Shown here: one piece after another, positions 1-12,599 of the stretch | Position numbering within the stretch: the stretch's first letter is position 1 | How the letters are laid out: every line of letters starts with the position of its first letter | Source: a virus | Taxonomy: Duplodnaviria > Heunggongvirae > Uroviricota > Caudoviricetes | IMG/VR virus record: IMGVR_UViG_3300050007_000314 | Coordinates: 1 to 12,599 of that record | Direction: 5' to 3' (one strand) | DNA length: 12,599 nucleotides | Notes under the pieces: generated by a model | What the model was told of the DNA's origin: nothing | Databases searched by the model: none | What the model saw: the letters and a program-made list of their open reading frames with translations, nothing else | Made by a program: the position numbers and the translations under genes

Positions 1-723
1 TAAGATCGCCCACATCAGCGGCTGTCGCCGCGCCCCCATACCCGTCAGCATAGTGGTGTAGAGCGAATCTGTGGGATGTTCGTGATACTCGTCGACAATC
101 GCACAGTGCGGTGAAGCGCCGTCACCAGGGTTACCAATCAGCGGCTCAAAACGCGCGCCATCCTCTGGCCGGTTCAGGTTGGACGCATTAACCTCGATCC
201 CGAACGCTTCCACCAGCAGCGGTGTACGCTTACACATCAGGCGAGCGGGTCTGAATACTTCCCACGCCTGCTTTTCAGTTGTGGCCCCGGAATATACTTC
301 AGCGCCAAACTCGTTATCACAGGTAAAACAGTACAGCGCCACACCCGCCGAAATAGCTGATTTCCCGTTTTTACGCGGTATCTCAGTGTAAACCTCGCGA
401 AAGCGACGAAGCTTCGAGCCTTTCTGGACCCAGCCAAAGGCGCAGCACACAATAAACAATTGCCATGCCTCCAGGGTTATCGGCATCCGCTTGAATGCCC
501 ACTCTCCTTTTGTATGTGGCAATAACTGGATAAATTTCGCAGCCTTTTCTGCCATGTCTTTATCGAAACGGTAACGAAATTTCTTACTCTTTTCAGCCGC
601 CATGTCATCGATATGACGCTGGCAGGCCTGAATGACAAACTGGCACGCCGGGATTTTCCCCCGCACAACGTTGCGGGCGTATTGATTCGCGGCGTTTACG
701 TTGGGGTACGATTTCCGGCTCAT
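1..723 (-). CDS. Phage terminase large subunit (TerL), N-terminal ~240 codons; gene runs off the left edge of the window
   Basis: Minus-strand frame is open from ATG at 721-723 to position 1 with no stop. It is absent from the ORF track only because it has no stop inside the window. Translation [29 protein letters not shown]...[20 protein letters not shown]...[35 protein letters not shown] has a Walker A-like NGKS and Walker B-like IVDEYHE, typical of terminase ATPase domains. Start ATG overlaps the terS stop (ATGA at 720-723). Confidence 0.85.
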
Positions 724-1217
724 GAGTTGATCATCTTCAGGAATGGGTTAGAGGTTTTCTTCTGTCCGGCAAGGCCGATCAGGCGTTGCCGGCTGCTGGG
801 GTCAAGGCCAAGCATGGAGCCGGTAGAGCTCATCTCCGATTCCTGCTCTTTCTTTGCGGTTAGCTCAGGGTTTTTTATCTTCCCTCCCATAGCACCAGTG
901 ATAGAAAGCCCATCTCTGGCGATATTTTTAACCGCCCTGCGCCAGAACTCGTAGGCAACACACCAGCGCTCAAGTACGGCAAGATCGGTAACACACAGTA
1001 ATCCCTGTCCACATAATTCTTTTGTGGTCAGTTCCCACATGATGGCCGCCATAGGCAGGCCGTCATCCTCAGAAAACCAGTCAGGTGGTGCCACACCTTT
1101 AATCGGTGTGAATACAGGTTCCTCTTTATTCAGAGCTCGTTTGCCGGGGTTCCCTGCCAGCTCCTTGCGCGCCGTTGGCTTGGGGCGACGCCCGGAACGC
1201 CCCGCCGTTCCAGCCAT
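720..1217 (-). CDS. Phage terminase small subunit, P27-family-like (TerS)
   Basis: ORF track 720..1226. N-terminus [27 protein letters not shown] matches the recalled P27-type TerS signature. The ATG at 1215-1217 is preferred over the GTG at 1226 because AGGAG lies about 8 nt upstream of it. It sits immediately upstream of terL with overlapping stop/start. Confidence 0.8.
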
Positions 1218-1343
1218 AAGCGACACTCCTGGTTAAATTTCATTTTTCGCGGGTATAAAAATACGAGGAGGCGGGCAGTCCGGAAGGCGCGCGGTCGCAG
1301 AGATTTGACCTCCCCCTACCCTGGCTGATGATGACATTAATTC
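1218..1343. other. HNH-terS intergenic region; candidate cos (cohesive end) site
   Basis: A 126-bp non-coding gap between the HNH endonuclease stop and the terS start, where HK97-like cos phages place cos. It contains a GC-rich core (gaggaggcgggcagtccggaaggcgcgcggtcgcagag, about 1265-1302) flanked by AT-rich sequence (gggtataaaaatac). Position and composition only; no cut site can be determined from sequence. Confidence 0.3.
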
Positions 1344-1694
1344 TCACTTGAGCCGCTCGCGCGCAGTCTTCGCTGCGTGACACGACCAGCACAGGCTCTC
1401 AAGGTTGCTGTCCTCATCAGTACCGCCGTGGGCCTTCGCCTTGATGTGGTCCACGCAGGACGCCTGCTTAACTATTGCCTGCCGTAGATGGTTCTGACAC
1501 AACCCCTTGTCGCGCTTAAGTATCCGCTCCCGGATGAATTCCCACTTTGTTCCGTATCCACGCTGCTGCCGTGATTGGCCTGGCTTGTAGGACTTCCAGC
1601 CTTCACCTTTGTGATTTTCACAGTAGCCAGATGGGTCTGTTGTGGTGTTCCGACAGCCGCGAACGCGACAAGCCTTCGGTGTGCGCGGTGGCAT
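1344..1694 (-). CDS. HNH endonuclease (phage packaging-associated)
   Basis: ORF track 1344..1733. Chosen start is ATG at 1692-1694 (MPPRTPKACRVRGC...), with GGGGAG about 5 nt upstream. Cys-rich N-terminal part (CRVRGCRNTTTDPSGYCENH) and an HNH core (CVDHIKAKAHGGTDEDSNLESLCWSCH). An HNH gene next to terS/terL is a well-known arrangement. Confidence 0.85.
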   Translation of the reverse strand: MPPRTPKACRVRGCRNTTTDPSGYCENHKGEGWKSYKPGQSRQQRGYGTKWEFIRERILKRDKGLCQNHLRQAIVKQASCVDHIKAKAHGGTDEDSNLESLCWSCHAAKTARERLK

Positions 1695-1758
1695 ATTCAC
1701 TCCCCAAAAAACGTATAGCATTATCGCAGACACTCAGTGAATGCCTGCTGTAATGCCG

Positions 1759-1962
1759 CTAGTCGTCGAGTTGTAACACACCGTGCTCAAGTGACTCGGA
1801 ATAGGCAATCAACCCGGTGTACTCAGGGATAACCTCACCATCATCAGCTTCGAATTCCGGGATTGTCCCAGTGGTGATGGTGTATTTGGGCTGACCATCT
1901 TCTTTCGCAAAGGCTGCCAGGTATTCAATCTGTTTTGCTGTAAGAACTACCGTCATGTTCAT
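1759..1962 (-). CDS. Hypothetical small acidic protein (67 aa)
   Basis: ORF with ATG start and GAGGA RBS-like motif about 6 nt upstream. Product is D/E-rich (MNMTVVLTAKQIEYLAAFAKEDGQPKYTITTGTIPEFEADDGEVIPEYTGLIAYSESLEHGVLQLDD). No family recognised. Confidence 0.5.
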   Translation of the reverse strand: MNMTVVLTAKQIEYLAAFAKEDGQPKYTITTGTIPEFEADDGEVIPEYTGLIAYSESLEHGVLQLDD

Positions 1963-1985
1963 TCCTCAGTTGTTAAAAAGCCCAG

Positions 1986-2219
1986 CTATTGCGAGGCTGT
2001 AATAATTTTATTTAGGCAGTTGAGCTGAACAGACCTGTTATGCGCCAGAATGTCCCGCTTCGTCTGTTTATCCAGCACGGCAATATCATGCTCAGTAAGG
2101 TAGATGATACTTACCCAGTCACAAGCCGTGTCCGTTACTTCAGGTTTTGCGGGTAAAGTTTTCGCGCAACTCGCGGTCAACATCGTCATCAGGAAGATGA
2201 TTAACAGTCTGCTGTACAT
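1986..2219 (-). CDS. Outer-membrane lipoprotein, putative o-spanin (Rz1-like), 77 aa
   Basis: Internal ATG at 2217-2219 with AAGGAG 7 nt upstream. N-terminus MYSRLLIIFLMTMLTASC has a lipoprotein signal peptide and lipobox Cys. The gene starts inside the preceding i-spanin-like gene in another frame and extends beyond it, the classic overlapped spanin layout. No sequence similarity to lambda Rz1 is claimed. Confidence 0.5.
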   Translation of the reverse strand: MYSRLLIIFLMTMLTASCAKTLPAKPEVTDTACDWVSIIYLTEHDIAVLDKQTKRDILAHNRSVQLNCLNKIITASQ

Positions 2220-2409
2220 CCCTGGCTCCTTTTGTTGTCTCCACCCGGCGTTCTGCAACGGCTTCAGTAGCTGCTGCGCGTTCCTCAGTGCGTTGCTGGT
2301 TAGCTTTTGTCTCAGCGATATTGGTACCGCGTGACTTACCCAGACCAAAAGCACCTGCAATTGCAGCCAGCACAGCAACAGCCAGGCCGAGAATCATTTC
2401 AAGTCCCAT
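2140..2409 (-). CDS. Putative i-spanin (Rz-like), 89 aa, N-terminal transmembrane anchor plus charged helical periplasmic domain
   Basis: ATG at 2407-2409 with GAGG about 6 nt upstream, directly after the endolysin stop. N-terminal hydrophobic segment MGLEMILGLAVAVLAAIAGAFGLG is followed by a charged, helix-prone region (ETKANQQRTEERAAATEAVAERRVETTKGARD). Shorter than a typical Rz, so the call is positional and structural only. Confidence 0.45.
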   Translation of the reverse strand: MGLEMILGLAVAVLAAIAGAFGLGKSRGTNIAETKANQQRTEERAAATEAVAERRVETTKGARDVQQTVNHLPDDDVDRELRENFTRKT

Positions 2410-2416
2410 AGTGACC

Positions 2417-3031
2417 TCACACCAGTGCGGCTTTAGCTTTGGCGTAACGTTCACGGCGGTCTTTAATGCCGTTCTGCCCGCCGTTAATAATTTGCGTGAC
2501 GCGTTCCACATCCCCCGAATAGAGGAGACAACCGCGTAACGTGAAGTACCATGCTGCCGAGCGGGCCGCGTGTCGCTCTTGCGTCAATAGTTCAGGAGTG
2601 CTCACAAGGTCAAGCTTCAGCGCTGTACCGCATTTGGTATAGTTCTCTCGGCCGGTGATTTGAAGCAGGCCGCGACCGCGATATTTCCAGCCATCACCCT
2701 GGCTGTTATTCCCCATGCGGTCACCGTAAACCAGATTGGCTATTTGTGGCTGGTGAGCGACTTGTTTACCATCGACACGCCCCAGCATTTCGCTCTGATA
2801 CGGCGTCAGGCGCTTACCGAAGGTTTTCTTCAGCCCTTCAACCGAGTAGTTAAAGTTCTCTACCAGCGAGGTAAAGCCATTGGATTCATGCCCAACTTGT
2901 GCAATGAACATGGCCTGATCATTAACCGCTGTAATTCCAAACTCTTTCATTGCCGCATCAATGTGCGGAAACCAGCGCGCAGAAAGCCCGGCGCTGATAC
3001 CAGCCGCCTGCTGAAATTGTGATTGGTTCAT
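2417..3031 (-). CDS. Endolysin, glycoside hydrolase family 19 (chitinase-like lysozyme)
   Basis: 204-aa ORF with ATG start and GAGG RBS. Contains the GH19 signature region GDGWKYRGRGLLQITGRENYTKCG. Sits between the holin-like genes and the spanin pair. Confidence 0.85.
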   Translation of the reverse strand: MNQSQFQQAAGISAGLSARWFPHIDAAMKEFGITAVNDQAMFIAQVGHESNGFTSLVENFNYSVEGLKKTFGKRLTPYQSEMLGRVDGKQVAHQPQIANLVYGDRMGNNSQGDGWKYRGRGLLQITGRENYTKCGTALKLDLVSTPELLTQERHAARSAAWYFTLRGCLLYSGDVERVTQIINGGQNGIKDRRERYAKAKAALV

Positions 3032-3033
3032 TA

Positions 3034-3312
3034 TTACCTCAGATGATCAACCAGCCGCGCTACGTTGCCCCTGACGGCGACCAGCACAGACAAGAAAATA
3101 ATGTTGGCCCCGATAGTGGCCCACGATGAATAAGGGTAGATACCGCACAGATAAGCCAGCGGAACCGCGCTATAGATGACCGTAAGCAGCCACGCTAAGC
3201 GAGATATCCACGGTCGATGTCGGGAATCACCACGGCGGTAAAACATCAGGGTCAGGACTACCCCAGCGCAAAGCAGCGCATTAATTGTTGCCGACGGGTC
3301 ATTTAGTACCAC
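3034..3312 (-). CDS. Holin-like small membrane protein (92 aa), second member of a holin/antiholin-like pair
   Basis: GTG start at 3310-3312 with GGGAGG about 6 nt upstream; 14-nt overlap with the upstream membrane-protein gene. Product has about 3 hydrophobic helices (INALLCAGVVLTLMFY, LAWLLTVIYSAVPLAYLCGIY, IGANIIFLSVLVAV) and a charged C-terminus. Lies immediately upstream of the endolysin. Confidence 0.6.
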   Translation of the reverse strand: MVLNDPSATINALLCAGVVLTLMFYRRGDSRHRPWISRLAWLLTVIYSAVPLAYLCGIYPYSSWATIGANIIFLSVLVAVRGNVARLVDHLR

Positions 3313-3685
3313 CTGAACCTCCCCGGCGCGTTATCAGCGCCACCAGCGAGCCGACATCCTGATTATTCAGGAACGTCAGGATTTTGACGGCTAAAGCAGA
3401 AACGATTACGGCGCCAATGGCATCCAGTGGTTTATCACTGTAGCCGGTCGCCTGAGCCAGCTTTGAACCCACCAGCCCGGAACAAAGGATCCCCGCGATA
3501 TACGACACCAGAAAATATGCCAGCCGACGCGTTGCACTCAGGTCAGCAGCCGTTGCAATGTAAAATACAGCTCCGGCAAATGCACCAAACACCACGCCAT
3601 AATCGGTTCCGGAAAGAAATCCATAGACGCTGGCCCCCGTCAGGACACCACCAGCCAGCCCAGTACCGGAAATCGGATCGGACAT
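3299..3685 (-). CDS. Holin-like membrane protein (128 aa), first gene of the lysis cassette
   Basis: ATG at 3683-3685 with GAGGGGG RBS. Gly/Ala-rich polytopic membrane protein (GLAGGVLTGASVYGFLSG..., VVFGAFAGAVFYIATA..., LAYFLVSYIAGILCSGLVG..., AIGAVIVSALAVKILTF). Function inferred from position; no specific family recognised. Confidence 0.55.
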   Translation of the reverse strand: MSDPISGTGLAGGVLTGASVYGFLSGTDYGVVFGAFAGAVFYIATAADLSATRRLAYFLVSYIAGILCSGLVGSKLAQATGYSDKPLDAIGAVIVSALAVKILTFLNNQDVGSLVALITRRGGSGGTK

Positions 3686-3728
3686 TTAGCCCCCTCTTAA
3701 TTGCTGTAAGTCCTCTCAGAATGAGGGG

Positions 3729-3757
3729 AATAAAAAAGGCCACCGAATGGCAGCCTT
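3729..3757 (-). terminator. Intrinsic terminator on minus strand, downstream of the 79-aa ORF and upstream of the lysis cassette
   Basis: Minus-strand reading AAGGCTGCC-ATTC-GGTGGCCTT: a 9-bp stem with two G-U pairs and a 4-nt loop, followed by TTTTTTATT. Confidence 0.5.
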
Positions 3758-3792
3758 AGTAAATGTTGTGTAGTGCTTTACTGGTAAATGCG

Positions 3793-4032
3793 TTATTGCT
3801 CATGGTCTTTTAAATAGTGATGCCCTTTGGAGGTAATTTCAGTTGCTATCCACGTACCATCACCGGATCTACTCTTAACAGCATTTACTAACCCTGCGTC
3901 AGCAAGATCAGAAATAGCAAAATTTACTGTTTCCTTTGGAATGAGCGGAAGTACTGAAGACTGAACCGCTTCATGTGGACCAAGAGCATTTACGCGACTC
4001 AGAATTTCGAAATGTACAGATGTGATTTTCAT
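3793..4032 (-). CDS. Hypothetical protein (79 aa), moron-like small gene between the Q-like gene and the lysis cassette
   Basis: ATG at 4030-4032 with GGAGG RBS. Flanked by an upstream promoter-like element and terminators on both sides. Local GC looks lower than in neighbouring structural genes. No family recognised (MKITSVHFEILSRVNALGPHEAVQSSVLPLIPKETVNFAISDLADAGLVNAVKSRSGDGTWIATEITSKGHHYLKDHEQ). Confidence 0.5.
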   Translation of the reverse strand: MKITSVHFEILSRVNALGPHEAVQSSVLPLIPKETVNFAISDLADAGLVNAVKSRSGDGTWIATEITSKGHHYLKDHEQ

Positions 4033-4067
4033 AGCACTGCCTCCGGTGGCTTGTTTTGACCAGCGGA

Positions 4068-4076
4068 ATTATAACA
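4068..4076 (-). promoter_or_regulatory. Candidate extended -10 promoter (TGtTATAAT) on minus strand; possible late promoter (PR-prime-like) or the small ORF's own promoter
   Basis: Minus-strand sequence TGTTATAAT (plus ATTATAACA, 4068-4076) matches the extended -10 consensus TGnTATAAT exactly, about 35 nt upstream of the 79-aa ORF start. No good -35 is needed for extended -10 promoters. Confidence 0.35.
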
Positions 4077-4111
4077 TATTGATTTTGACGTAGATTGAGT
4101 GCCAAAAGAGG

Positions 4112-4140
4112 TTAAAGAAAAACCCGCTCACAGGCGGGTT
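4112..4140 (-). terminator. Intrinsic terminator on minus strand downstream of the Q-like gene (tR-prime-like candidate)
   Basis: Minus-strand reading AACCCGC-CTGTGA-GCGGGTT followed by TTTTCTTTAA: a 7-bp GC-rich stem plus U-tract. On the plus strand the same hairpin lacks a comparable T-tract. Confidence 0.55.
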
Positions 4141-4233
4141 TATAGAACTTTGGCAACATATCAAATATGCTTCAAATATGGCTTATTTTGTTGCATTTTG
4201 CAAGCGCGTTTGAAGGAGATAGTGAAATTTACT

Positions 4234-4944
4234 TCACATTTCTGCCACTTTGAGGGCGTCTTCTTCCTCATAGTATTCAAGAGCCATGGCCAGCGCAGAT
4301 TCATCAAGCTGGGTAAAAGCGGCCTTTAACCCAGCCCAGTGCCCTGAATAGACGCGCAACCATGTCGAACGGTCAACGCTAACCATGCGGGCCAACGCTG
4401 CACTAGCATAGTCTTTATAGGTTTCATTATTTCTGGTTGCGGCAATTTCCTGCCCTGCCAGCCATACCAGGCCAATCAGTTTCTTTACTACGCGCTCCTG
4501 AAGGGAGTTATCACCCAGGCATTTCTGATAAGTTTTCCAGACGTATTCACACATCATCACCTGGTGCTTATAGCTAAGGTCAAAACCGTAGCAGTACCGC
4601 AACCAGGCCTGCTGGTATCCACTAAGCGCGGACACTGCCCTACGCCACGGCGCGGACTCAAATTCCGCATCTTTTATCGGCGGCATTGGCCTGCGGCGGC
4701 TGCGTGTTTCCAGTACATACAGTGGCGCGGAAAGCGAGTTAACAAAGCGTGGCCCCTTCTCTCCTTCGAGTTCGACGAGGTGAATTCCACGGCGCGGGGT
4801 GGCATTTTTGTCTGCTGGTGGGTGTTCACTGAAAGCCTCAAGCTGCCCTTTTGTTCCCCCAGAGAGGTCAGGTAGCGCGCGGCGCAATTCTATTCTTACA
4901 AAATTCAGGTCTTGTTGATTCATGCTTCTTTGCGCTCCATACAC
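4234..4944 (-). CDS. Putative late-gene antiterminator (Q-like), 229-236 aa
   Basis: ORF track 4234..4944 (GTG start; alternative ATG at 4921-4923 giving MNQQDLNFVR...). The call is positional: directly upstream of a promoter/terminator interval and the lysis cassette, downstream of a DUF968-like gene, as in many lambdoid prophages. No sequence similarity to lambda Q is claimed. Confidence 0.5.
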   Translation of the reverse strand: MYGAQRSMNQQDLNFVRIELRRALPDLSGGTKGQLEAFSEHPPADKNATPRRGIHLVELEGEKGPRFVNSLSAPLYVLETRSRRRPMPPIKDAEFESAPWRRAVSALSGYQQAWLRYCYGFDLSYKHQVMMCEYVWKTYQKCLGDNSLQERVVKKLIGLVWLAGQEIAATRNNETYKDYASAALARMVSVDRSTWLRVYSGHWAGLKAAFTQLDESALAMALEYYEEEDALKVAEM

Positions 4945-5940
4945 TTAAGCTTTCGCAATTACGCCGATCGACAGCGCCCGATCCATAAAACGCAGTAGCA
5001 GCTCAAGCTGCGTACCATGCTTCTGCTCGAATGCTGGTACATCGGCGTGTAACTCGTCGTGGCACTCTCTGCACAGAGGGATCACGAAGAGGTCATGGGC
5101 TTTTGTTGCTGTACCACCCATACCGTGCCCTACGATATGGTGCGGATCATCTGCTGGCCGTCGGCAACACTCACAGGGTTGTGTTTTAACCCAGCGGGTG
5201 TACGTCTCATTTACCCAGCGGCGACGTTTTGGCCTGAGCATAAAAGATTCCGGGGACTCCGGATCGACGGTTAGCGTCAGTATTGCCTTTTGGGTTTCCA
5301 CATCCAGGCTGTCAGACCGCCGAGCTGGTAACGTATCAATCGACCTGGCTTTTTCCTGCATAATGCTGATGGCCGGCGGCATAGGTACGATGTCACTTTC
5401 CCGGTAAACAGATAATAATGGTTCGTCTGGCAACCGAAGTGCCCGTTGCGCCATTCCTTCGGTGACAGCATCAGCGACACCAGACTGAACCGCCCACCAG
5501 CAAAGCTCGGCTAAAGAGAGGGAGCGCTCTTTGTTGTGGCCAAGCCCAACCAGTACGGTATCAACAATCCATTCGGCAACATTGCTCAGCGCAAGCGCCT
5601 GTAATCTCTCCGTTGACTGACCGCGCAATTTGTTATCGCAGTGCCAGCACACCACTAACGCGCCAGGAGGATGCCATAGTGTTGTTAGCTCGGCATGATG
5701 GTAGTCAGAAACAGGGTACTGACACTTTTTAACGCGCTGACGAAGCCAGTACTCAAGCCCGGCCATACCACCAGCAGCAGTAATTACCCGTTCATCGGTG
5801 AAGAAAGTGTGAAGGCTGGCATCCTCCAGTAGCGGTTGCCGTGCATCGGGGATCCGACCAGACGGAAGCCTGGCCATGTTTTCAGGCTCACGCTCAACGA
5901 GCACACGACCTGCAGGGGTAAGTAAGGCTCTCAATGCCAA
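4945..5940 (-). CDS. DUF968-like phage protein (YdfU-like) with C-terminal Cys/His HNH-like zinc-binding motif
   Basis: 331-aa ORF. C-terminal region PCECCRRPADDPHHIVGHGMGGTATKAHDLFVIPLCRECHDELH resembles an HNH/zinc-ribbon nuclease-like motif. Placement between the Nin-like region and the Q-like gene matches recalled DUF968 genes in lambdoid prophages. Start is uncertain: TTG at 5940 or ATG at 5875-5877. Confidence 0.6.
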   Translation of the reverse strand: MALRALLTPAGRVLVEREPENMARLPSGRIPDARQPLLEDASLHTFFTDERVITAAGGMAGLEYWLRQRVKKCQYPVSDYHHAELTTLWHPPGALVVCWHCDNKLRGQSTERLQALALSNVAEWIVDTVLVGLGHNKERSLSLAELCWWAVQSGVADAVTEGMAQRALRLPDEPLLSVYRESDIVPMPPAISIMQEKARSIDTLPARRSDSLDVETQKAILTLTVDPESPESFMLRPKRRRWVNETYTRWVKTQPCECCRRPADDPHHIVGHGMGGTATKAHDLFVIPLCRECHDELHADVPAFEQKHGTQLELLLRFMDRALSIGVIAKA

Positions 5941-5944
5941 CCCC

Positions 5945-6466
5945 TTATACCGTCAGATCTTTAAATTTCTGTACGGCCTTCCCCATATCCGCCATTGCAT
6001 CCACAAACTCATCAAACTTACGGCTTGCCATTCCATAAGCCTGTAGGATTTCAAGTTTCAGAGGATCGAGTTGTTTTTTGATTTCAGCTCGGTCACCGGC
6101 CTTTTTTTCAGCTTCTTCAGCGGCGCGAATGAGGGCTTCAGCCTGCTTGCGTAATTCTTCAGGGGTCACGGTTGACTTATTCATAGTGGCTTCCTTCAAT
6201 GGCTTCGACGACGCAATAACCGGCGCCACGGATTTATGACCAAATTTAGGGTGATGCAGGGTTGTTGTCCTGCCGTCATCAGTGACACAGAGCAGGCTGT
6301 TTTCGCGGATGATTTCGATCAGGGTTTCTTTATCCTTCCGACTCAACGAGCTATAAGCTGATACCTTGTGCGTCAGATGGGTAAGAGTTGCCCCATCGGG
6401 TTGTTTCTCAACAAACCGTTTAACCCTGGACAATACTGGCTGAAGGTGCGGAGGGGTCACTCTCAC
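5945..6466 (-). CDS. Hypothetical protein (173 aa), translationally coupled to the upstream antirepressor-like gene
   Basis: GTG start overlapping the stop of the upstream gene (GTGA at 6463-6466), with a G-rich RBS-like stretch upstream. C-terminal part is a charged, helix-prone region (EELRKQAEALIRAAEEAEKKAGDRAEIKKQLDPLKLEIL). No family recognised. Confidence 0.5.
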   Translation of the reverse strand: MRVTPPHLQPVLSRVKRFVEKQPDGATLTHLTHKVSAYSSLSRKDKETLIEIIRENSLLCVTDDGRTTTLHHPKFGHKSVAPVIASSKPLKEATMNKSTVTPEELRKQAEALIRAAEEAEKKAGDRAEIKKQLDPLKLEILQAYGMASRKFDEFVDAMADMGKAVQKFKDLTV

Positions 6467-7347
6467 TGGAGCCCCCCTGCTAAATCTTTGTCGTGGGTAA
6501 AACTACCGTTCCAGGTGACCTTCATCGGAAGCTTTCCCTTCAGGTAGTTTTTGTACAGCCAGACAGCGCCTTCGCGCAGCAAGACGGGCTGGTAGGAAGT
6601 AAAGCTCACTGCAGAGTTTGGCGATACTTTACTGCTTTTCTCGGTGAGGTATTTGTCGCGGGCATACGAGCGTACACGCCACTGTGCGCTGCGGCCTTCG
6701 GGATTGTCATCGTACAGCCAGTTAGCAGAGACAAGCCAGGCACTGATCTTGGAGGTATTCACACCATTCAGACGCTTACAGAACTGTACAGGGGAAAGCC
6801 CGTCAGTGAAGAGACTCTCGAGATGCTCGATATATTCGGCCTGCTGGTGGGTGAGTGCTTCAGCCTGCTGCTTTGCCTCCATAGCGTCCGCCCAGGCTCG
6901 CGCTAAAGTAATTGGATCAGACATATTGGGCAGCATGACACCGTGGACCTCACGAAGATTGAAGTAATGATCTTCAAGCTGTTCAAAGAAGTCCCAGGCT
7001 AATTCGGTTTCAAGCATTTTCGCATGGCGGGAAGCTCCACGCTCAGTCCAAAGAATAAGTGAAGTAGTGTGTTTATTAACCACATCGCTAAATGATAGTC
7101 GGAACGATTTCAGCTCATCACCAGTGATTTTGAAGAAGTGTTTACCCTCGACAAAGCGTTGCTCGTTTCGAGCGAAGTTTTGCTGAATTCTTACTGGTGT
7201 TGTGCCGTAACCGGCAGCAAGGGAATCCGTTGTCACTACGCGTTGATTGCGATAGGTGATCACCGGAACCGACGAGTGATTAACGGAAATTACTGATGAA
7301 GTGCTATTTTCGGGCGTAGCAGTGCCCCTAACATGATGATTGCTCAT
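6463..7347 (-). CDS. Phage antirepressor/regulatory protein (Rha/ORF6N-like N-terminal domain, KilA-C-like C-terminal region)
   Basis: ORF track 6463..7452. I favour the ATG at 7345-7347 (MSNHHVRGTATPE..., GGAGAG RBS), but the ATG at 7450-7452 also has an RBS-like AGAGGTGG and would overlap rusA by 19 nt. N-terminal region VITYRNQRVVTTDSLAAGYGTTPVRIQQNFARNEQRFVEGKHFFKITGDELKSF resembles phage Rha/antirepressor N-domains from memory; C-terminal half is helical. Family assignment is from recall, not search. Confidence 0.5.
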   Translation of the reverse strand: MSNHHVRGTATPENSTSSVISVNHSSVPVITYRNQRVVTTDSLAAGYGTTPVRIQQNFARNEQRFVEGKHFFKITGDELKSFRLSFSDVVNKHTTSLILWTERGASRHAKMLETELAWDFFEQLEDHYFNLREVHGVMLPNMSDPITLARAWADAMEAKQQAEALTHQQAEYIEHLESLFTDGLSPVQFCKRLNGVNTSKISAWLVSANWLYDDNPEGRSAQWRVRSYARDKYLTEKSSKVSPNSAVSFTSYQPVLLREGAVWLYKNYLKGKLPMKVTWNGSFTHDKDLAGGLQ

Positions 7348-7433
7348 ATTCTCTCCATACTCTGATTGTTGCGACGAGCCTGCACGCCCGTTTCGCTTGC
7401 ACTTTCCGACATTACTGCCATATCGACCAATAT

Positions 7434-7832
7434 TCAACCCACAGCTGGACATATAACCACCTCTTTTTTATATGCCGTTATGGTTATCTCAACTTTTCCC
7501 TTCGGTACTATTGGTCCCCATTCCACCAGCATGCGCTTAATCTGGCTGTCGTCTTCCCAGACACCCGCATGCGTCAGCGCGTCAAACAGGGCTTTGTTGT
7601 AATTATCGATATCCCGACGGCGCGCATCCGGTGGGTACAGAGTGATTTCTACCGCTGCCAGTTCAGTCGATGGCTTCGGGAGACGTCGTAATTGCTCAAT
7701 GATCGCCACGCAGGCAGCGCTCTGGTATTTACGACCATCAGAGCTAATGAGGTGACGACCGGCCAGCGGCCCCTTGTTAGGGGCGCGCCAGTAAGTGTTC
7801 ACGCTCGGAGGAAAAGGCAGGATAAGTTTCAC
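7434..7832 (-). CDS. rusA: Holliday junction resolvase RusA (crossover junction endodeoxyribonuclease)
   Basis: 132-aa product MKLILPFPPSVNTYWRAPNKGPLAGRHLISSDGRKYQ...DIDNYNKALFDALTHAGVWEDDSQI is the characteristic RusA sequence pattern. GTG start overlaps the stop of the upstream methyltransferase (GTGA); GGGGAGAGG RBS. Confidence 0.9.
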   Translation of the reverse strand: MKLILPFPPSVNTYWRAPNKGPLAGRHLISSDGRKYQSAACVAIIEQLRRLPKPSTELAAVEITLYPPDARRRDIDNYNKALFDALTHAGVWEDDSQIKRMLVEWGPIVPKGKVEITITAYKKEVVICPAVG

Positions 7833-8707
7833 GCGGCCTCTCCCCGCATATTGCGAACAAGTTCAGAAGCTGCAGTAATGATTTCGCTGGTGGCCGTTCG
7901 TTCCAGCCAGAGTTGATTTATGTTGGCTTTCAGCTTGTTCTGCTGAGCCTCACTCAATACGTCAACGCCTTCCACTTGGTTGAACACAAGACCAACCTCG
8001 AGAGGCCAGATACGTGACTCAGTTTCCGGTGTTGCTGCTGGTTCCATGGCTGCCTGCATTGCGATTGTTTGCTCTTTACTAACGGCGAATTGAGCCAAAG
8101 CCATAAATGCCCGCCCTTTTTCCTCCAGTTCTGTGCGGTTGATATAGCTGAACCGCTCACCCCGCCACGACTTATCGAATACAGCTATGGCACCGGCAAA
8201 AAACGCGCTGGTGGGTTTCTGTTTTTCGTCAGCAGGTACAAACCACACAGGCAGATCGAACCCAATACGACCACGAATAAACATGATGTGATCGGCATCT
8301 TCCGGCCACCATGTTTCACTTGTGGCAGACTTCACCAGGTAAATATAGCGACCACCTCTTTCACGCATGTCCATGGTGTGATTCATGATGTGTGTCATAC
8401 CCGTAATCGCCTGCTTGTCGTGATACTGGGAGCGGCTATATGGAGGGTTGGCAAAAGCCGCGCCGCCCAGTTCATCCAGACGTTCAGACCAGTTCTGTGT
8501 CAGCGCGTTATCTTCGGCGGTGTACCATGCCGGACACTTCGCGTTATCGTCGTCAGCAAACAGGTCCAGAACTAATGGACCAAATAGCGCGTTGATCCCC
8601 CAGAAAAGCAGATCCGGTGTCCGCCACTGATCGCCAACTTCTTTCAATTCGTGGGCTGGTTGGCTACGTAGTGCCGCCAGCGCCTGGCAATATTTGTTTA
8701 ACGTCAT
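7829..8707 (-). CDS. Phage DNA N6-adenine methyltransferase (Dam-family) with a ~100-aa C-terminal extension
   Basis: 292-aa ORF whose ATG start overlaps the stop of the replication gene (ATGA). N-terminal two-thirds has the phage Dam-type pattern (WRTPDLLFWGINALFGPLVLDLFA ... AAFANPPYS, with the NPPY catalytic motif). C-terminal ~100 aa (RTELEEKGRAFMALAQFAVSKEQ...) is unassigned. Confidence 0.8.
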   Translation of the reverse strand: MTLNKYCQALAALRSQPAHELKEVGDQWRTPDLLFWGINALFGPLVLDLFADDDNAKCPAWYTAEDNALTQNWSERLDELGGAAFANPPYSRSQYHDKQAITGMTHIMNHTMDMRERGGRYIYLVKSATSETWWPEDADHIMFIRGRIGFDLPVWFVPADEKQKPTSAFFAGAIAVFDKSWRGERFSYINRTELEEKGRAFMALAQFAVSKEQTIAMQAAMEPAATPETESRIWPLEVGLVFNQVEGVDVLSEAQQNKLKANINQLWLERTATSEIITAASELVRNMRGEAA

Positions 8708-9561
8708 CCTCTGAACCCCGCAGGAATCGTTGTATCAACCGGACCAAAAGCCATCACATCGCGCTTTTTCGCACCCCAGTCAGCGCGTTTAGGCCGTCCT
8801 TTCTGATCCCAGCGGGTAGCGCTTTGCAGATAGCTCTCGAATTTCTTCGGGCCAAACAGCGTTTCCGGCCTCATGTACTGGTACTGCTCGTCGTTCTCGT
8901 GCCAGTGCTCATGCTTCAGGTCGATAACCAGTTGCAGGTCTGCAACGCTGTACCCCTCACGCAGTCGGGCACGGATGTTCTCCAGGGAGGTTTTTGATTT
9001 CTGATACCGGGATCCGCTGATCTGGTTCAAATGGGACAAAACCAAAATCGCCTGGTCAGTAATCACGACTTCAGGGTCTGGTTGCGCCGCAACCGGACAA
9101 GAGGGTTTTGAAGTTACTTGTGGATCTTGTGTTGATTTTACTGACGGATCCCCGCCAGATTCTGACGGGTCAAAACCGCCGTTTTTGCCAGATTTCGACG
9201 GGTCAGTTTTTGAGGCGTCAAATTTTGATGCGTCAGATTTTGACGTGTCAGAATCTGACAGTTGAGAAAATGCGGCAGCCTGAAGTTTCGCCACATTCAG
9301 ACGATACACGTTCGAAGCATTACGGTTACCATTACGGCGCTGTGTACGCGTGAGCCAGCCATCTTTTTCAAGCTTAGCGATTGCCGTTCTGATAGTGCTC
9401 GGCCCTGCGCCAAGCTGACGAGCAATAGTTTCAATGGACGGCCAGCACACCCCCTCATCGCTGCTGAAATCAGCAAGGCGAGCCATGATCGCGACACTAG
9501 ACAACTTCATGCCCGACGCCGCGCAACCATCCCATACGTAGCCGGTTAATTTAGTGCTCAT
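8704..9561 (-). CDS. Replication initiator protein (lambda O-like role): N-terminal HTH domain, low-complexity acidic Ser/Asp/Lys linker, conserved phage replication C-terminal domain
   Basis: 285-aa ORF with ATG at 9559-9561. N-terminal winged-HTH-like region (LSSVAIMARLADFSSDEGVCWPSIETIARQLGAGPSTIRTAIAKLEKDGWLTR), a central repeat linker SDSDTSKSDASKFDASKTDPSKSGKNGGFDPSESGGDPS, and a C-terminal block (ITDQAILVLSHLNQISGSRYQKSKTSLENIRARLREGYSVADLQLVIDLKHEHWHENDEQYQYMRPETLFGPKKFESYL) recalled as the conserved C-terminus of phage replication initiators. Iteron-like DNA repeats are embedded in the linker-coding region. Confidence 0.7.
   Translation of the reverse strand: MSTKLTGYVWDGCAASGMKLSSVAIMARLADFSSDEGVCWPSIETIARQLGAGPSTIRTAIAKLEKDGWLTRTQRRNGNRNASNVYRLNVAKLQAAAFSQLSDSDTSKSDASKFDASKTDPSKSGKNGGFDPSESGGDPSVKSTQDPQVTSKPSCPVAAQPDPEVVITDQAILVLSHLNQISGSRYQKSKTSLENIRARLREGYSVADLQLVIDLKHEHWHENDEQYQYMRPETLFGPKKFESYLQSATRWDQKGRPKRADWGAKKRDVMAFGPVDTTIPAGFRG
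9137..9265. repeat. Iteron-like tandem direct repeats inside the replication initiator gene; candidate origin of replication
   Basis: Plus-strand tandem units at about 15-bp spacing: GCGTCAAATTTTGAT (9215-9229), GCGTCAGATTTTGAC (9230-9244), GTGTCAGAATCTGAC (9245-9259). Looser copies lie upstream (ACTGACGGATCC at 9140-9151, TCTGACGGGTCA at 9161-9172, TCGACGGGTCAG at 9195-9206). AT-richer flank at about 9100-9140. Analogous to ori-lambda iterons inside gene O. Confidence 0.5.
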
Positions 9562-9902
9562 GATCGTCCGTTATCTCCCTGAATTTTTGCCTGAAATGCT
9601 CAAGTGGGCTGAAGCATTCGTGCGGGTAGCCATCACGCAGATAGATAACGCGCTGTGTTTCTGGCTCCCAGCGGATAACACGGACTGGCACTCCGCGGTG
9701 GTCTTTGAACCTTCGGTTAAGTTCGCGCACAGGCGTTTTGCCCTCCGGTTGTAGACCCCCACAATTGAAACCGCCCTACTGTGGTTACACGGAACCCAGC
9801 GGTTTGATAATCTGCGCTCATACCGAAACAACGGAGTACCCGAAACCGGGATCATCCTTAGTTGCGGTAGACGGTTAAAAGCCGTTAAACTGCTCATGCG
9901 GA

Positions 9903-10454
9903 TTATTTCTCCATACTCGAAGAGTTGTTCGCCAAGGCGCCCGGAGCTGCACACTCGCGGGCGTCACTCTTTTCTGGAAGGCAATAAACTCGTGAAATCA
10001 GGTTCAGGAACGTCATAAGCGTTACCCGGAACTGGTAGGCGATTTCATTCAGACTGTCCCACTCCCCTTTATCAACTACACCATCATCGATGTATCGACG
10101 GTATGCGTTGACCAGATCCCCAAGCCTGCCCACCAGCTCAGCCAGCTTTAAGCCAATTTCTTCGTTCTCTGTTTCTGGTGCTGCGCCAGGGATATGAATC
10201 CCGTTATCTGTTTGACGAGAAAACGCATCTGCTATGTAGCTAACACCGGCGGCTTTCTGTAGCACCATCGCCCATCCCATAGGGAAGATCTGATCCCCAT
10301 CCACACGAAGGCGGTTAAACAATGCGTTCTCTGTCACGCCCAACCATTCCGCAGCCTCAGCATATCCACCAGGCAGATCGGTAATCGTTTTTTTAATCGC
10401 TACCACCAGCCAAGAAGGCTGACGTTCAACTTTCCAAATAGGTTCGTTACCCAC
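9903..10454 (-). CDS. HTH regulator in the cII position (cII/YdaT-like, putative), 183 aa
   Basis: ORF track 9903..10559 would overlap the cro-like gene by 77 nt. I prefer the in-frame GTG at 10452-10454 with AAGGGG 6 nt upstream (MGNEPIWKVERQPSWLVVAIKK...). Helix-turn-helix-like segment GGYAEAAEWLGVTENALFNRLR. Gene order cro-like then this gene then replication initiator parallels lambda cro-cII-O. Function inferred from position and the HTH only. Confidence 0.4.
   Translation of the reverse strand: MGNEPIWKVERQPSWLVVAIKKTITDLPGGYAEAAEWLGVTENALFNRLRVDGDQIFPMGWAMVLQKAAGVSYIADAFSRQTDNGIHIPGAAPETENEEIGLKLAELVGRLGDLVNAYRRYIDDGVVDKGEWDSLNEIAYQFRVTLMTFLNLISRVYCLPEKSDARECAAPGALANNSSSMEK
9936..9977 (+). 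terminator. Possible plus-strand intrinsic terminator antisense to the 3-prime end of the cII-like gene (OOP-like antisense RNA terminator candidate)
   Basis: Plus-strand GGCGCCCGGAG-ctgcaca-CTCgCGGGCGTC (stem about 10 bp with a 1-nt bulge) followed by ACTCTTTTCT. The T-tract exists only on the plus strand. No convincing promoter was found upstream, so this is low confidence. Confidence 0.25.
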
Positions 10455-10482
10455 GGTTAACCCCTTAATTCTGTGGTTACAA

Positions 10483-10725
10483 TTACGCTGCTGAATCTTT
10501 AATCTTTTGAAAAATATCAGGACGTAATTTCTCTCTTGAAACTCCGGTGACCTTTTCAATTAGCGCTGATAGTTTTGCTGGTGGTTTTTTCTCTCTGTTC
10601 AGCCAGTTCCAGACCTGCTGTTGTTTCACTAACCGCCCAGAACTAGCGGTAAGCTTGCGCGCTAACTCTGATTGGCCACCAGCCAGAGCGATTGCCTCTG
10701 AAAGGGCTAACTGCTCGGGAGTCAT
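10483..10725 (-). CDS. Cro-like HTH repressor (YdaS-like, Cro/CI family), 80 aa
   Basis: ORF track 10483..10743 (TTG). I prefer the ATG at 10723-10725 with AGGAG 7 nt upstream (MTPEQLALSEAIALAGGQSELARKLTASSGRLVKQQQVWNWLNREKKPPAKLSALIEKVTGVSREKLRPDIF). The GGQS-x-LAR-x-L ... V-x-QW ... LRPDI pattern matches recalled YdaS/Cro-like proteins. Divergent from the cI-like gene across an operator-rich intergenic region. Confidence 0.7.
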   Translation of the reverse strand: MTPEQLALSEAIALAGGQSELARKLTASSGRLVKQQQVWNWLNREKKPPAKLSALIEKVTGVSREKLRPDIFQKIKDSAA

Positions 10726-10861
10726 AGTTTTCTCCTGTATCAATACATAAAAGTTGTTGCCGATAGAGATTATACAACCTCAACAACTTTTATCACAACT
10801 TTTAGGTGTTGGAAAGCTAAAACATAAAGTTGTAATCTCACCGTAAATAAGGGGGGAAGTT
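10726..10861. promoter_or_regulatory. OR-like divergent promoter/operator region between the cro-like and cI-like genes
   Basis: Four copies of an 8-bp half-site in inverted orientations: AAAGTTGT at 10750-10757 and 10826-10833, ACAACTTT at 10783-10790 and 10795-10802. Minus-strand promoter candidate: -35 TTGTGA, 18-bp spacer, perfect -10 TATAAT (plus 10769-10774). Plus-strand candidate for cI: TTGGAA (10809-10814), 16-bp spacer, TGTAAT (10831-10836). Both overlap the half-sites. Confidence 0.6.
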
Positions 10862-11548
10862 GTGAACACACTGGCGGAAAGACTGAAAGTTGCGAGAGAA
10901 AAAACAGGGTTAAGCCAAGCTCAACTCGCTGAATCAATAGGTGTTTCTCAACAATCCGTAGCAAAAATAGAAAACGGAGATACGTTGCAACCGCGAAAGA
11001 TAAAAGAAATCGCAAATGTATTAGGCGTTAGCCAAAAGTGGTTGCAACTAGGCATTGAGGAAAATGCTTCACTTTCTGATTTTGTGGTTGGAGAGGCTGA
11101 AAGTGCCAGTTTAGACCCTGCCATTTTCGCTGACATACCAGTACTAGATGTAGAGTTATCAGCAGGAAATGGTTGTGAAGCCGAAATTGTAGAGTCTGTA
11201 ATTGACTGGTTTCCTATCCGAAGAATGGATCTAAGGAAAGCTGGAGTCAGCGCTTCAAATGCTAGGATCGTAAAAATTTGGGGGAACAGCTTATTGCCAG
11301 TTCTCAATAACGGCGATCATGTTGCTGTTGATATCGCACAGACAAACCCTATTCGAGATGGCGATTTATACGCTGTCAGAGATGGGGTCCTGCTAAGGGT
11401 CAAAGTGCTAATAAACCAACCTGATGGTGGTTTAATTATAAGAAGCTTCAACAAAGATGAGTATCCAGATGAAATACTCACCTTCAATGAACGCCGCGCA
11501 AGAATTCATGTTATCGGCAGGGTGTTTTGGTCATCACGTTCATGGTAA
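10862..11548 (+). CDS. cI-like prophage repressor (N-terminal XRE-type HTH, C-terminal S24 LexA-like autopeptidase domain)
   Basis: 228-aa ORF with GTG start and a G-rich RBS (AAGGGGGG) about 5 nt upstream. N-terminal HTH LSQAQLAESIGVSQQSVAKIENGD; C-terminal S24-like region with the Ser motif in KIWGNSLLPVLNNGDHVAVD and a downstream Lys (LLRVKVL). Only substantial plus-strand gene in the window; AT-rich. Confidence 0.9.
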   Translation: MNTLAERLKVAREKTGLSQAQLAESIGVSQQSVAKIENGDTLQPRKIKEIANVLGVSQKWLQLGIEENASLSDFVVGEAESASLDPAIFADIPVLDVELSAGNGCEAEIVESVIDWFPIRRMDLRKAGVSASNARIVKIWGNSLLPVLNNGDHVAVDIAQTNPIRDGDLYAVRDGVLLRVKVLINQPDGGLIIRSFNKDEYPDEILTFNERRARIHVIGRVFWSSRSW

Positions 11549-12421
11549 TACGCCAAATAACATTTCCTCTGAGATAATTTTTAGCTTTGCGCCATTATCG
11601 TCGCGATAGCTAACAGCTTTCTCTATCTTTCTCCCGTGGCTGGAAAATTTCCAGTCTCTGGATGATAGGGTTCCGACTACAAGGAAGTCCAGTTTTTGGG
11701 TAATTCCATTACTTATTTTCCCCCCTGCACTTTTGATCCGTTCCTCTACCACCGCTCGCTTACCTGCCATAAAGGTACCCGTTAAACAGTAGGTTTTGTC
11801 CGTAAGATCAACGACTACATTATTATCAATCGGTAGCCTCGTCGCCAATCCATCAACAACACCGCTATCTAGATCGCATCCAGTAAAGTCAACAAGTGCT
11901 TTATGTAGAGTTTCGCTTTCTTCTGGAGTTATTACCCCATCGTTAAGGATATCTTTTATTAGAATGTACAAATCCTTCCCTGGGTAGTTACTCTTAAGAG
12001 CCCCATTTTGTGTTAACCACCAGTCGAGATATCTAATTTCATCTTCCGTCAAGGTCCTATCCGAGATCAGCCCTTTACACAATCCACTAAGAAGATGTAG
12101 ATCCATTTCAGCAGAATAAAAATCAATTCCAGGAATATCTAAAATTTCTCTTTGGATTTTTGTCAGACTGTTTTTGAGTTCTTTTCTTTCTTCCTCTGTA
12201 ATCACCCCATCAGCTAAAATATCTGAGACCCTCGCCGATAGACTCTTAATAACCCCATTTCTTATAATTTGATTTGCTTCAAGTAGCCATGTGTCAAGGT
12301 AAAGAACTTCCTCATCTCTTACCACCCCATCAGCAACAATACCATCAATGATACTGATTAGGTTCGCAAACAACTTATCTCTATTGTGTGTGTAATTAAA
12401 TACGTAAAGCTTGTCTTCCAT
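11540..12421 (-). CDS. Accessory protein of unknown function: N-terminal TerB-like repeat region plus C-terminal BRCT-like domain (293 aa)
   Basis: ATG at 12419-12421 with AGGAGG 5 nt upstream. Four repeats of an ADG-type helix motif (IIDGIVADGVVRDEEVLYL, VSDILADGVITEEERKEL, GLISDRTLTEDEIRYL, IKDILNDGVITPEESETL) resembling TerB domains. C-terminal DKTYCLTGTFMAGKRAVVEERIKSAGGKISNGITQKLDFLVVG...AKLKIISEEMLFGVL resembles the BRCT domain of NAD-dependent DNA ligases. GC roughly 35-40 percent by eye. Convergent with cI, 9-nt 3-prime overlap. Confidence 0.7.
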   Translation of the reverse strand: MEDKLYVFNYTHNRDKLFANLISIIDGIVADGVVRDEEVLYLDTWLLEANQIIRNGVIKSLSARVSDILADGVITEEERKELKNSLTKIQREILDIPGIDFYSAEMDLHLLSGLCKGLISDRTLTEDEIRYLDWWLTQNGALKSNYPGKDLYILIKDILNDGVITPEESETLHKALVDFTGCDLDSGVVDGLATRLPIDNNVVVDLTDKTYCLTGTFMAGKRAVVEERIKSAGGKISNGITQKLDFLVVGTLSSRDWKFSSHGRKIEKAVSYRDDNGAKLKIISEEMLFGVLP

Positions 12422-12476
12422 ACAGCCTCCTCTTTTTTATACATCCTTGCATTCATCTCATCTTCAATCAAACCAC

Positions 12477-12522
12477 ATAAAGTTGTTGACATTGTGTTTC
12501 ACCACAACTAAATTACAACTTA
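12477..12522 (+). promoter_or_regulatory. PL/OL-like promoter-operator: plus-strand promoter pointing out of the window, overlapped by repressor half-sites
   Basis: -35 TTGACA (12486-12491), 17-bp spacer, -10 TAAATT (12509-12514). Half-site copies overlap it: ATAAAGTTGTTG (12477-12488), ACAACTA (12504-12510), ACAACTT (12515-12521). ACATAAAGTTGT occurs here and in the OR region. Confidence 0.5.
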
Positions 12523-12599
12523 AAGGTGTTAACCAACAGCGAACAGGCAGGACGCACATGAAGTAGCCGCCGGTGGCATATGAATAACCGGATGATTCC

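Follow-up and report, generated by a model that had tools for sequence, protein, structure and literature searches.

A probable two-component spanin pair of the HK639/mEp390 type in the lysis cassette of a lambdoid prophage

Two overlapping genes at the end of a lysis cassette

We analyzed two short overlapping genes in 12,599 nucleotides (nt) of Caudoviricetes DNA, positions 1 to 12,599 of IMG/VR record IMGVR_UViG_3300050007_000314 (the whole stretch is hereafter the window). The window is a lambdoid prophage, and the two genes, a candidate spanin pair, form the last module of its lysis cassette. On the minus strand, which carries every feature of the pair, the gene order is holin, holin, GH19 endolysin, an 89-amino acid (aa) inner-membrane spanin (i-spanin; 2140-2409) and a 77-aa outer-membrane spanin (o-spanin; 1986-2219). 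The original prediction, made from sequence, had placed two open reading frames (ORFs) overlapping out of frame behind a GH19 endolysin, and translation bears this out. Frames of 89 and 77 codons plus stop (2409-2140 and 2219-1986) follow the endolysin gene (204 aa, 2417-3031; Pfam Glyco_hydro_19, E 7.7e-8; phrog_181 endolysin, E 4.5e-89) and share 80 nt (2140-2219), which encode i-spanin residues 64-89 with the stop codon as well as o-spanin residues 1-27. The o-spanin is read in the +1 frame of the i-spanin (2409-2219 = 190, 1 mod 3). Adjacent spanin genes may be embedded, overlapped or separated; those in the window are overlapped and lie within the lysis cassette.

The i-spanin gene is preceded by a strong Shine-Dalgarno sequence, GAGGT (2414-2418), which is spaced 4 nt from the ATG and shares bases with the endolysin stop codon TGA (2419-2417); the GAGGT context is also found in the HK639 entry of SpaninDB and in several related loci. 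Its product matches the "Rz-like spanin" family phrog_1026 (profile length 85) over residues 1-88 of 89 (E 9.2e-32). The protein begins MGLEMILGLAVAVLAAIAGAFGLGKSRG, continues as a charged tail and has no Cys. An N-terminal membrane anchor and a charged region had been proposed, and both are evident: residues 5-23 (MILGLAVAVLAAIAGAFGL; 2341-2397) form a hydrophobic segment with a summed value of -1.56 kcal/mol on the Hessa scale and Gly or Ala at 9 of its 19 positions, and the 66 residues after it include 13 acidic and 13 basic ones. Sequence and structure model alike predict a single N-terminal transmembrane helix. In the AlphaFold2 (AF2) model, a helix at residues 3-22 is separated by a Gly-rich break from a second of 41 residues (30-70), and this in turn by a break at HLP from a third of 15 residues (74-88). 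The periplasmic domain is modeled as mainly alpha-helical, and SpaninDB gives 72% predicted helix for the i-spanins of mEp390 and HK639 (Kongari et al., 2018; PMC6139136). Conservation and the last AF2 helix, itself of low confidence, delimit a C-terminal helix at residues 74-89 (2143-2190) that carries the conserved motif DDDVDRELRENFTR; D75, D76, V77, D78, R79, E80, L81, R82 and R87 are invariant or almost so in homologues. This helix is the likely contact site for the o-spanin.

Upstream (2410-2511, minus strand), the i-spanin frame continues without a stop as far as an ATG at 2511, which lies within the endolysin gene; the resulting 123-aa ORF has a very basic extension at its N-terminus and would give the i-spanin a basic cytoplasmic tail and a more usual length. 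We rejected this longer form. The 123-aa ORF looks incidental, since many homologues have stop codons 2-16 codons upstream that close the extension, and no start is conserved there; the start codon of the 89-aa frame is the conserved one among homologues.

The o-spanin gene has its own strong Shine-Dalgarno sequence, AAGGAG (2226-2231), within the i-spanin gene and with a 6-nt spacer to the ATG at 2219. Its product, a putative outer-membrane lipoprotein precursor, matches phrog_1275 ("Rz-like spanin," E 5.5e-30). The precursor reads MYSRLLIIFLMTMLTASC and then, in the mature part, AKTLPAKPEVTDTACDW...NC...ASQ. The signal peptide and lipobox Cys seen originally were recovered: the predicted signal peptide (2166-2219) fits a PROSITE-style lipoprotein pattern and ends in the lipobox L-T-A-S-C18 (Cys codon 2168-2166). 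The signal is of the kind predicted to be cut by signal peptidase II, and sorting to the outer membrane is expected because the +2 residue is Ala and not Asp. Across 80 viral loci the lipobox varies as L(T/I)(A/V/G/T)SC.

There are three Cys in the o-spanin in all (C18, C33, and C68), that is, two beyond the lipobox Cys, where three had been counted. These two belong to a conserved core, residues 28-68 (VTDTAC33DW...TKRDILAHN....C68; 2016-2138), which is predicted to form a small helical domain. Among 35 diverse homologues, C18, C33, W35, and C68 are invariant and I39, I57, L58, H60, and N61 are at least 90% conserved. C33 and C68 are candidate periplasmic Cys residues for a predicted homotypic disulfide linkage, for which at least one would be needed. 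The AF2 model built from the 35-sequence alignment has a mean predicted local distance difference test score (pLDDT) of 81.8, with 10-residue block means of 90-98 over residues 31-60, and places helices at 32-35, 43-48, and 51-75 behind a low-confidence tether. A PDB fold search gave no neighbor of the o-spanin and a PDB sequence profile search no relative; in predicted viral structures its fold neighbors were solely o-spanins, those of Pectobacterium PP101, Escherichia Mangalitsa and Proteus Myduc. The protein ends in a polar tail, NKIITASQ, with no C-terminal hydrophobic segment. A unimolecular spanin of the T1 gp11 type, which needs a lipobox and a C-terminal transmembrane helix in one protein, was considered and rejected.

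Conservation of the pair and family membership

Both ORFs are short, and the second is often truncated or skipped by gene callers, as might be expected if one or both were chance open frames that are not expressed. Conservation speaks strongly against this. The i-spanin has 931 database matches; the o-spanin has 215 close matches, and an exhaustive search gave it 79 clusters when grouped at 50% identity. A relative is encoded in 577 of 600 candidate stretches of viral contigs. We kept 80 related IMG/VR loci for comparison: both homologues are present in every one, and in 79 both frames are intact and in the same overlap class. The overlap measures 80 or 86 nt in 77 loci and 101 nt in two, the i-spanin frame is truncated in one, and the o-spanin is always in the +1 frame. 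Hundreds of homologues keep the length, start, Shine-Dalgarno site, lipobox and cysteines, both frames are conserved across the overlap, and the PHROG E-values are about 1e-30. Judged from this record the probability of chance frames is negligible, and they are effectively excluded.

Identical copies of the 89-aa protein occur in one NCBI chromosome of 5.15 Mb and in two assembled read sets. Gene calling cut the o-spanin short in the chromosome and missed it in the read-set contigs. Some database "proteins" (P0248 and P0252) join the i-spanin in frame to the o-spanin core, and such entries are probably frameshifts or sequencing errors inside the overlap.

The nearest relatives of both proteins come from Citrobacter, E. 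coli and Salmonella prophages, and the closest annotated relatives in the phage collection are coliphages mEp390 and HK639, along with Klebsiella and Escherichia temperate phages. The i-spanin is 73% identical to that of mEp390 and 70% to that of HK639 over the whole protein. The o-spanin is 66% identical over 68 residues to the o-spanin regions of both, and 43 and 42% identical to the o-spanins of phages 73 and AF, respectively. The mEp390/HK639 relatives are named "Rz-like spanin" in RefSeq, and SpaninDB lists HK639/mEp390 as an overlapped pair (Kongari et al., 2018; PMC6139136). There, the i-spanin has 91 aa, 65-67 periplasmic residues, no Cys and the family name "HK639," and the o-spanin has 75 aa, 58 mature residues, two Cys and the family name "BcepNazgul," which also covers phages 73, Kakheti25, KL1, PY100, AF, and AH2 (PMC6139136). 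Membership in a SpaninDB family takes 40% identity or more across 40% or more of the periplasmic (i-spanin) or mature (o-spanin) domain. By sequence, the i-spanin of the window belongs to family "HK639" (phrog_1026) and its o-spanin to family "BcepNazgul" (phrog_1275). At least one Cys is present in 507 of 528 catalogued spanin pairs, and none in the i-spanin with two in the o-spanin is the commonest two-component pattern, as in T4 (PMC6139136).

Searches of Pfam with E up to 1 returned no Rz or Rz1 family for either spanin and only weak, sub-cut-off matches to DUF6779 and DUF2681; neither Pfam nor NCBIfam searches gave a model for either protein. Homology to non-lysis proteins had been named as a ground for giving up the spanin reading, and nothing meaningful of this kind was found in Pfam, NCBIfam, PDB sequences or PDB folds. 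Prophages carry small outer-membrane lipoprotein morons, and the 77-aa protein might be one of these, a Bor-, Cor-, or Llp-like lysogenic-conversion or superinfection-exclusion lipoprotein whose gene merely overlaps that of an unrelated small membrane protein. The lack of a Pfam or NCBIfam model would suit such a protein, as would the label "hypothetical" that both proteins bear in most database entries. However, the pair holds a fixed position right after the endolysin with a conserved out-of-frame overlap, and the same family occurs in holin-endolysin-Rz-Rz1 cassettes beside terminase genes in Pseudomonas, Xanthomonas and Burkholderia phages. With no match to non-lysis families and with o-spanins as the fold neighbors, we consider a moron highly improbable. 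The fold neighbors being phage o-spanins, the "different envelope-disruption pair" originally offered as an alternative likewise finds no support.

The sequence features, the family membership, the conserved pairing and the position in the cassette were observed directly, and the pair is very probably an HK639/mEp390-type two-component spanin and as such an ordinary member of a family already catalogued. The overlapped i-spanin/o-spanin reading first proposed for these genes is upheld by the PHROG spanin families, the SpaninDB-curated relatives and the cassette context.

Length of the i-spanin and distant homologues

The i-spanin had been called unusually short against a usual length of 130-180 aa. 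That range fits the embedded, lambda-type class (143-189 aa in SpaninDB), but overlapped i-spanins extend from 69 to 213 aa (PMC6139136). At least 15 overlapped i-spanins in SpaninDB have 91 aa or fewer (range 69-91 aa): those of Bk and phiHSIC (69 aa), phi1402 (73), phi1422 (75), phi1M2-2 (77), phiEcoM-GJ1 (78), Jenny_12G5 (80), AF (82), Chi, Enc34, iEPS5, FSL_SP-088, and FSL_SP-124 (84), and HK639 and mEp390 (91) (PMC6139136). Among the best 120 homologues of the window protein, 115 have 89 or 91 aa, and the description as unusually short does not hold.

Six distant phages with the same o-spanin family were compared: Burkholderia E169 and KL1, Xanthomonas Langgrundblatt2 and Samson, Halfdan, and Pseudomonas SCUT-S3. 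They have a holin-endolysin-i-spanin-o-spanin layout followed by TerS or an integrase, with i-spanins of 94-106 aa, and one further homologous i-spanin in SpaninDB has 118 aa (PMC6139136). Profile-profile alignment with hhalign joined the enterobacterial 89-91 aa i-spanins to the distant 94-118 aa ones with a probability of 98.7% (E 3e-16). The C-terminal motif is LRDEW(S/T)R in the distant i-spanins versus RELRENFTR in the window, in general form LR(D/E)x(W/F)xR. The main length difference is an extra N-terminal tail of about 10 residues before the membrane helix in the distant i-spanins, and the periplasmic length across the superfamily is 64-97 residues, compared with 131 in Rz. Shortness is a family property, because the superfamily homologues have a similarly short periplasmic domain and their extra length is mainly N-terminal tail.

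SpaninDB keeps the HK639 pair, the 73/KL1 group and the BcepNazgul and AF singletons apart as i-spanin families. Sequence comparison indicates that the HK639-type, 73/KL1-type, BcepNazgul and AH2 i-spanins are in fact homologous; most share LR(D/E)x(W/F)xR, and all are paired with the same o-spanin family. The homologous pair lies directly after the endolysin in Burkholderia, Xanthomonas, Pseudomonas and Loki-type phages despite differences in the annotated enzyme, which may be a lysozyme, an amidase or a signal-anchor-release (SAR) endolysin. Co-inheritance of the i-spanin C-terminal motif with the o-spanin core across hosts and annotated endolysin types, GH19 included, is the best sign, if an indirect one, of contact between the two proteins.

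Membrane topology of the i-spanin

The charges that flank the membrane helix count against the spanin reading, and by the positive-inside rule alone the C-terminal domain of the i-spanin would be put in the cytoplasm. The N-terminal tail (residues 1-4, MGLE; 2398-2409) has no Lys or Arg, and its E4 is conserved in 114 of 116 sequences. Past the helix comes GKSRG (residues 24-28; 2326-2340), in which K25 and R27 are conserved. The curators of SpaninDB noted the same doubt for HK639 (PMC6139136). In most superfamily i-spanins the membrane helix is rich in Gly and Ala (8-9 of 19 residues), and several of these helices have a summed hydrophobicity close to that of the phage 21 SAR endolysin used as a control.

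Such features would suit an 89-aa protein inserted N-out/C-in, like the Pf3 coat protein, with a cytoplasmic domain and a role as a small lysis regulator (antiholin-like or holin-associated), leaving the lipoprotein to act alone or with another partner. Inversion is argued against because Lys or Arg precedes the membrane helix in five of the six fetched distant i-spanins and in AH2 (SpaninDB), as an N-in orientation expects (Halfdan and BcepNazgul do not have it), because lambda Rz is reported to be N-in/C-out (PMC6139136) although by our computation its C-flank is net positive too, and because the partner is periplasmic: the C-terminal motif travels with the periplasmic lipoprotein family across hosts and endolysin types. 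The cassette holds no other candidate inner-membrane partner, and the helix in the window is clearly hydrophobic. An inverted lysis regulator is for these reasons quite improbable in our view. A SAR-like helix for the i-spanin of the window was also rejected, its -1.56 kcal/mol standing against +0.78 for the R21 SAR control.

A broader variant takes HK639-type i-spanins to have an inverted or dynamic (SAR-like, proton-motive-force-dependent) topology, or to be minimal spanins too short to bridge an intact periplasm, which would engage the folded, disulfide-bearing domain of the o-spanin only after the wall has been degraded. The grounds for reading the protein as other than a static type II i-spanin are the N-terminal tail without basic residues but with a conserved Glu, the Gly/Ala-rich helix and a periplasmic reach about half that of Rz. 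We hold this to be unlikely; if true, it would amount to a variant mechanism of outer-membrane disruption.

Proposed mechanism and reach

As an N-in two-component spanin, the pair would work by analogy with lambda Rz/Rz1 and T4 PseT.3/PseT.2, the systems from which we infer its topology, lipidation, complex formation, disulfide chemistry and membrane fusion. The 89-aa protein would enter the inner membrane through residues 5-23, with about 66 mostly helical and highly charged residues facing the periplasm. The 77-aa protein would be exported, lipidated at Cys18, processed by signal peptidase II and delivered to the outer membrane. There, the mature lipoprotein would sit on a tether of about 13 residues, its small helical domain held together or dimerized through C33 and C68. 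The C-terminal helix of the i-spanin, DVDRELRENFTR, would bind the o-spanin domain, giving a complex that spans the peptidoglycan mesh between the membranes. With the endolysin released by the holins and the wall broken down, the complexes would be free to collapse, the inner and outer membranes would fuse, and virions would be released.

Several further points weigh against this picture. Our rough geometry, which allows 0.15 nm per helical and 0.35 nm per extended residue, gives the i-spanin about 11 nm and the o-spanin about 7 nm, a maximum of about 18 nm. The E. coli periplasm is about 20-25 nm wide, which makes for a tight fit. On the other side, Kongari et al. remark that among phages of one host the periplasmic lengths of spanins are not conserved (PMC6139136). 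The i-spanin was modeled by AF2 with low confidence (pLDDT 58). A literature search found no report of an experimental test for any member of the HK639-type family, and SpaninDB predicts no coiled coil for the HK639/mEp390 i-spanins (PMC6139136).

Annotation and neighboring genes

The family, the overlapped architecture, the short i-spanin and the Cys pattern were already catalogued in 2018, and the practical value of the pair is in annotation. "Hypothetical" labels arise in RefSeq because Pfam and NCBIfam have no model for either protein. Annotation pipelines leave both spanins as "hypothetical" in E. coli DA33137 and many NCBI entries, and the o-spanin is often started at the internal Met of MLT(A/V)SC, which loses the signal peptide, or its gene is skipped. 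What this analysis adds is the homology of HK639-type i-spanins to their longer counterparts (94-118 aa) in Pseudomonas, Burkholderia and Xanthomonas phages, with LR(D/E)x(W/F)xR as the likely o-spanin contact. The N-terminal tail, basic in most relatives, has been lost in the enterobacterial branch, and because of this loss the topology of the enterobacterial i-spanins merits a direct test.

Upstream of the endolysin, the lysis cassette begins with a 128-aa holin (3299-3685, minus strand; Pfam Phage_holin_8, E 6.8e-34; phrog_198 holin, E 2.9e-41), followed by a second holin-family protein of 92 aa (3034-3312, minus strand; Pfam Phage_holin_3_7, E 7.6e-20; phrog_217 holin, E 1.7e-31). These two different holin-family genes stand in tandem with a 14-nt overlap, and the same two are found in mEp390 and related E. 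coli prophages; their products may act as holin and antiholin. The sequence of the GH19 endolysin shows neither a membrane segment at the N-terminus nor a SAR segment there, and the enzyme is on this account expected to be holin-dependent.

On the 3' side of the spanin pair come a 67-aa ORF, an HNH endonuclease gene and the small terminase gene. The 67-aa ORF (1759-1962, minus strand), which lies between the o-spanin and HNH endonuclease genes, encodes an acidic protein of phrog_9518 (unknown function), and mEp390 has a hypothetical gene at the matching position. Other genes in the window encode a Q antiterminator, DUF968, ORF6N, RusA, Dam, a replication protein and a CI-like repressor (10862-11548, plus strand). 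The repressor gene has as its neighbor a gene for a 293-aa protein (11540-12421, minus strand), in which Pfam places a BRCT domain at the C-terminus (E 6.7e-7) and for which PADLOC gives a weak match to PDC-S48 (E 1.3e-6); this is a typical position for a moron or defense gene.

Comparison with known systems

The closest known systems are the pairs of HK639 (HK639_70 and the adjacent gene) and mEp390 (gp51/gp52). They have the same cassette order, with two holins, an epsilon15-like/GH19 endolysin, i-spanin and o-spanin, and the same +1 overlapped architecture, with an overlap of 86 nt compared with 80 nt in the window. Their i-spanins (91 versus 89 aa) likewise lack Cys and share the MG(L/F)E start and the GAGGT Shine-Dalgarno sequence, and their o-spanins (75 versus 77 aa) also have two Cys beyond the lipobox. 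Differences are confined to the sequence level: the i-spanin ends ...RPGGG or ...RPGGD rather than ...FTRKT, and the o-spanin tail past C68 differs.

The BcepNazgul-type pairs include those of Pseudomonas phages 73, Kakheti25, and SCUT-S3, Burkholderia phages KL1, AH2, and E169, and Xanthomonas phages Samson and Langgrundblatt2. In common with the window they have the o-spanin core V(I/V)DT(A/G)CxW...ILxHN...C, with both Cys invariant, and homologous i-spanins (by the hhalign comparison above) with the C-terminal motif LR(D/E)xW. Most of these pairs are overlapped and all directly follow the endolysin, as in the window. However, most of their i-spanins have 94-118 aa with the extra N-terminal tail of about 10 residues, which contains Lys or Arg in most; the o-spanins often have longer tethers, the endolysins belong to other types, and SpaninDB places their i-spanins in families separate from HK639.

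In P2 LysB/LysC, the prototype of the overlapped arrangement, the start of the o-spanin gene falls, as in the window, within the 3' part of the i-spanin gene and in its +1 frame, and the o-spanin gene runs on past the end of its partner. LysB differs in having 141 aa and two predicted coiled coils and belongs to another sequence family than the i-spanin of the window.

Lambda Rz/Rz1 has the same proposed job and parts, an inner-membrane protein built of an N-terminal membrane helix and a helical periplasmic domain, and an outer-membrane lipoprotein, and its genes, too, share DNA in the +1 frame and come last in the lysis cassette. There is no detectable sequence similarity to the window pair (no Pfam match). 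Rz has 153 aa, two coiled-coil segments and two Cys, and Rz1 is fully embedded in Rz, proline-rich and unstructured, with one Cys (PMC6139136). By comparison, the i-spanin of the window lacks Cys and is about half as long in its periplasmic part, and the o-spanin of the window has a folded helical core in the AF2 model.

T4 PseT.3/PseT.2 has the same Cys pattern as the window, none in the i-spanin and two in the o-spanin, together with a structured o-spanin and a short i-spanin (117 aa). The T4 genes differ in being separated and outside the lysis cassette, no sequence similarity to the window was detected, and the Cys of PseT.2 lie near its C-terminus, whereas C33 and C68 bracket the domain. 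The T4 layout complements lambda Rz/Rz1 and needs both Cys (PMC6139136), and the two invariant Cys of the o-spanin in the window would supply the disulfide linkage that T4 needs.

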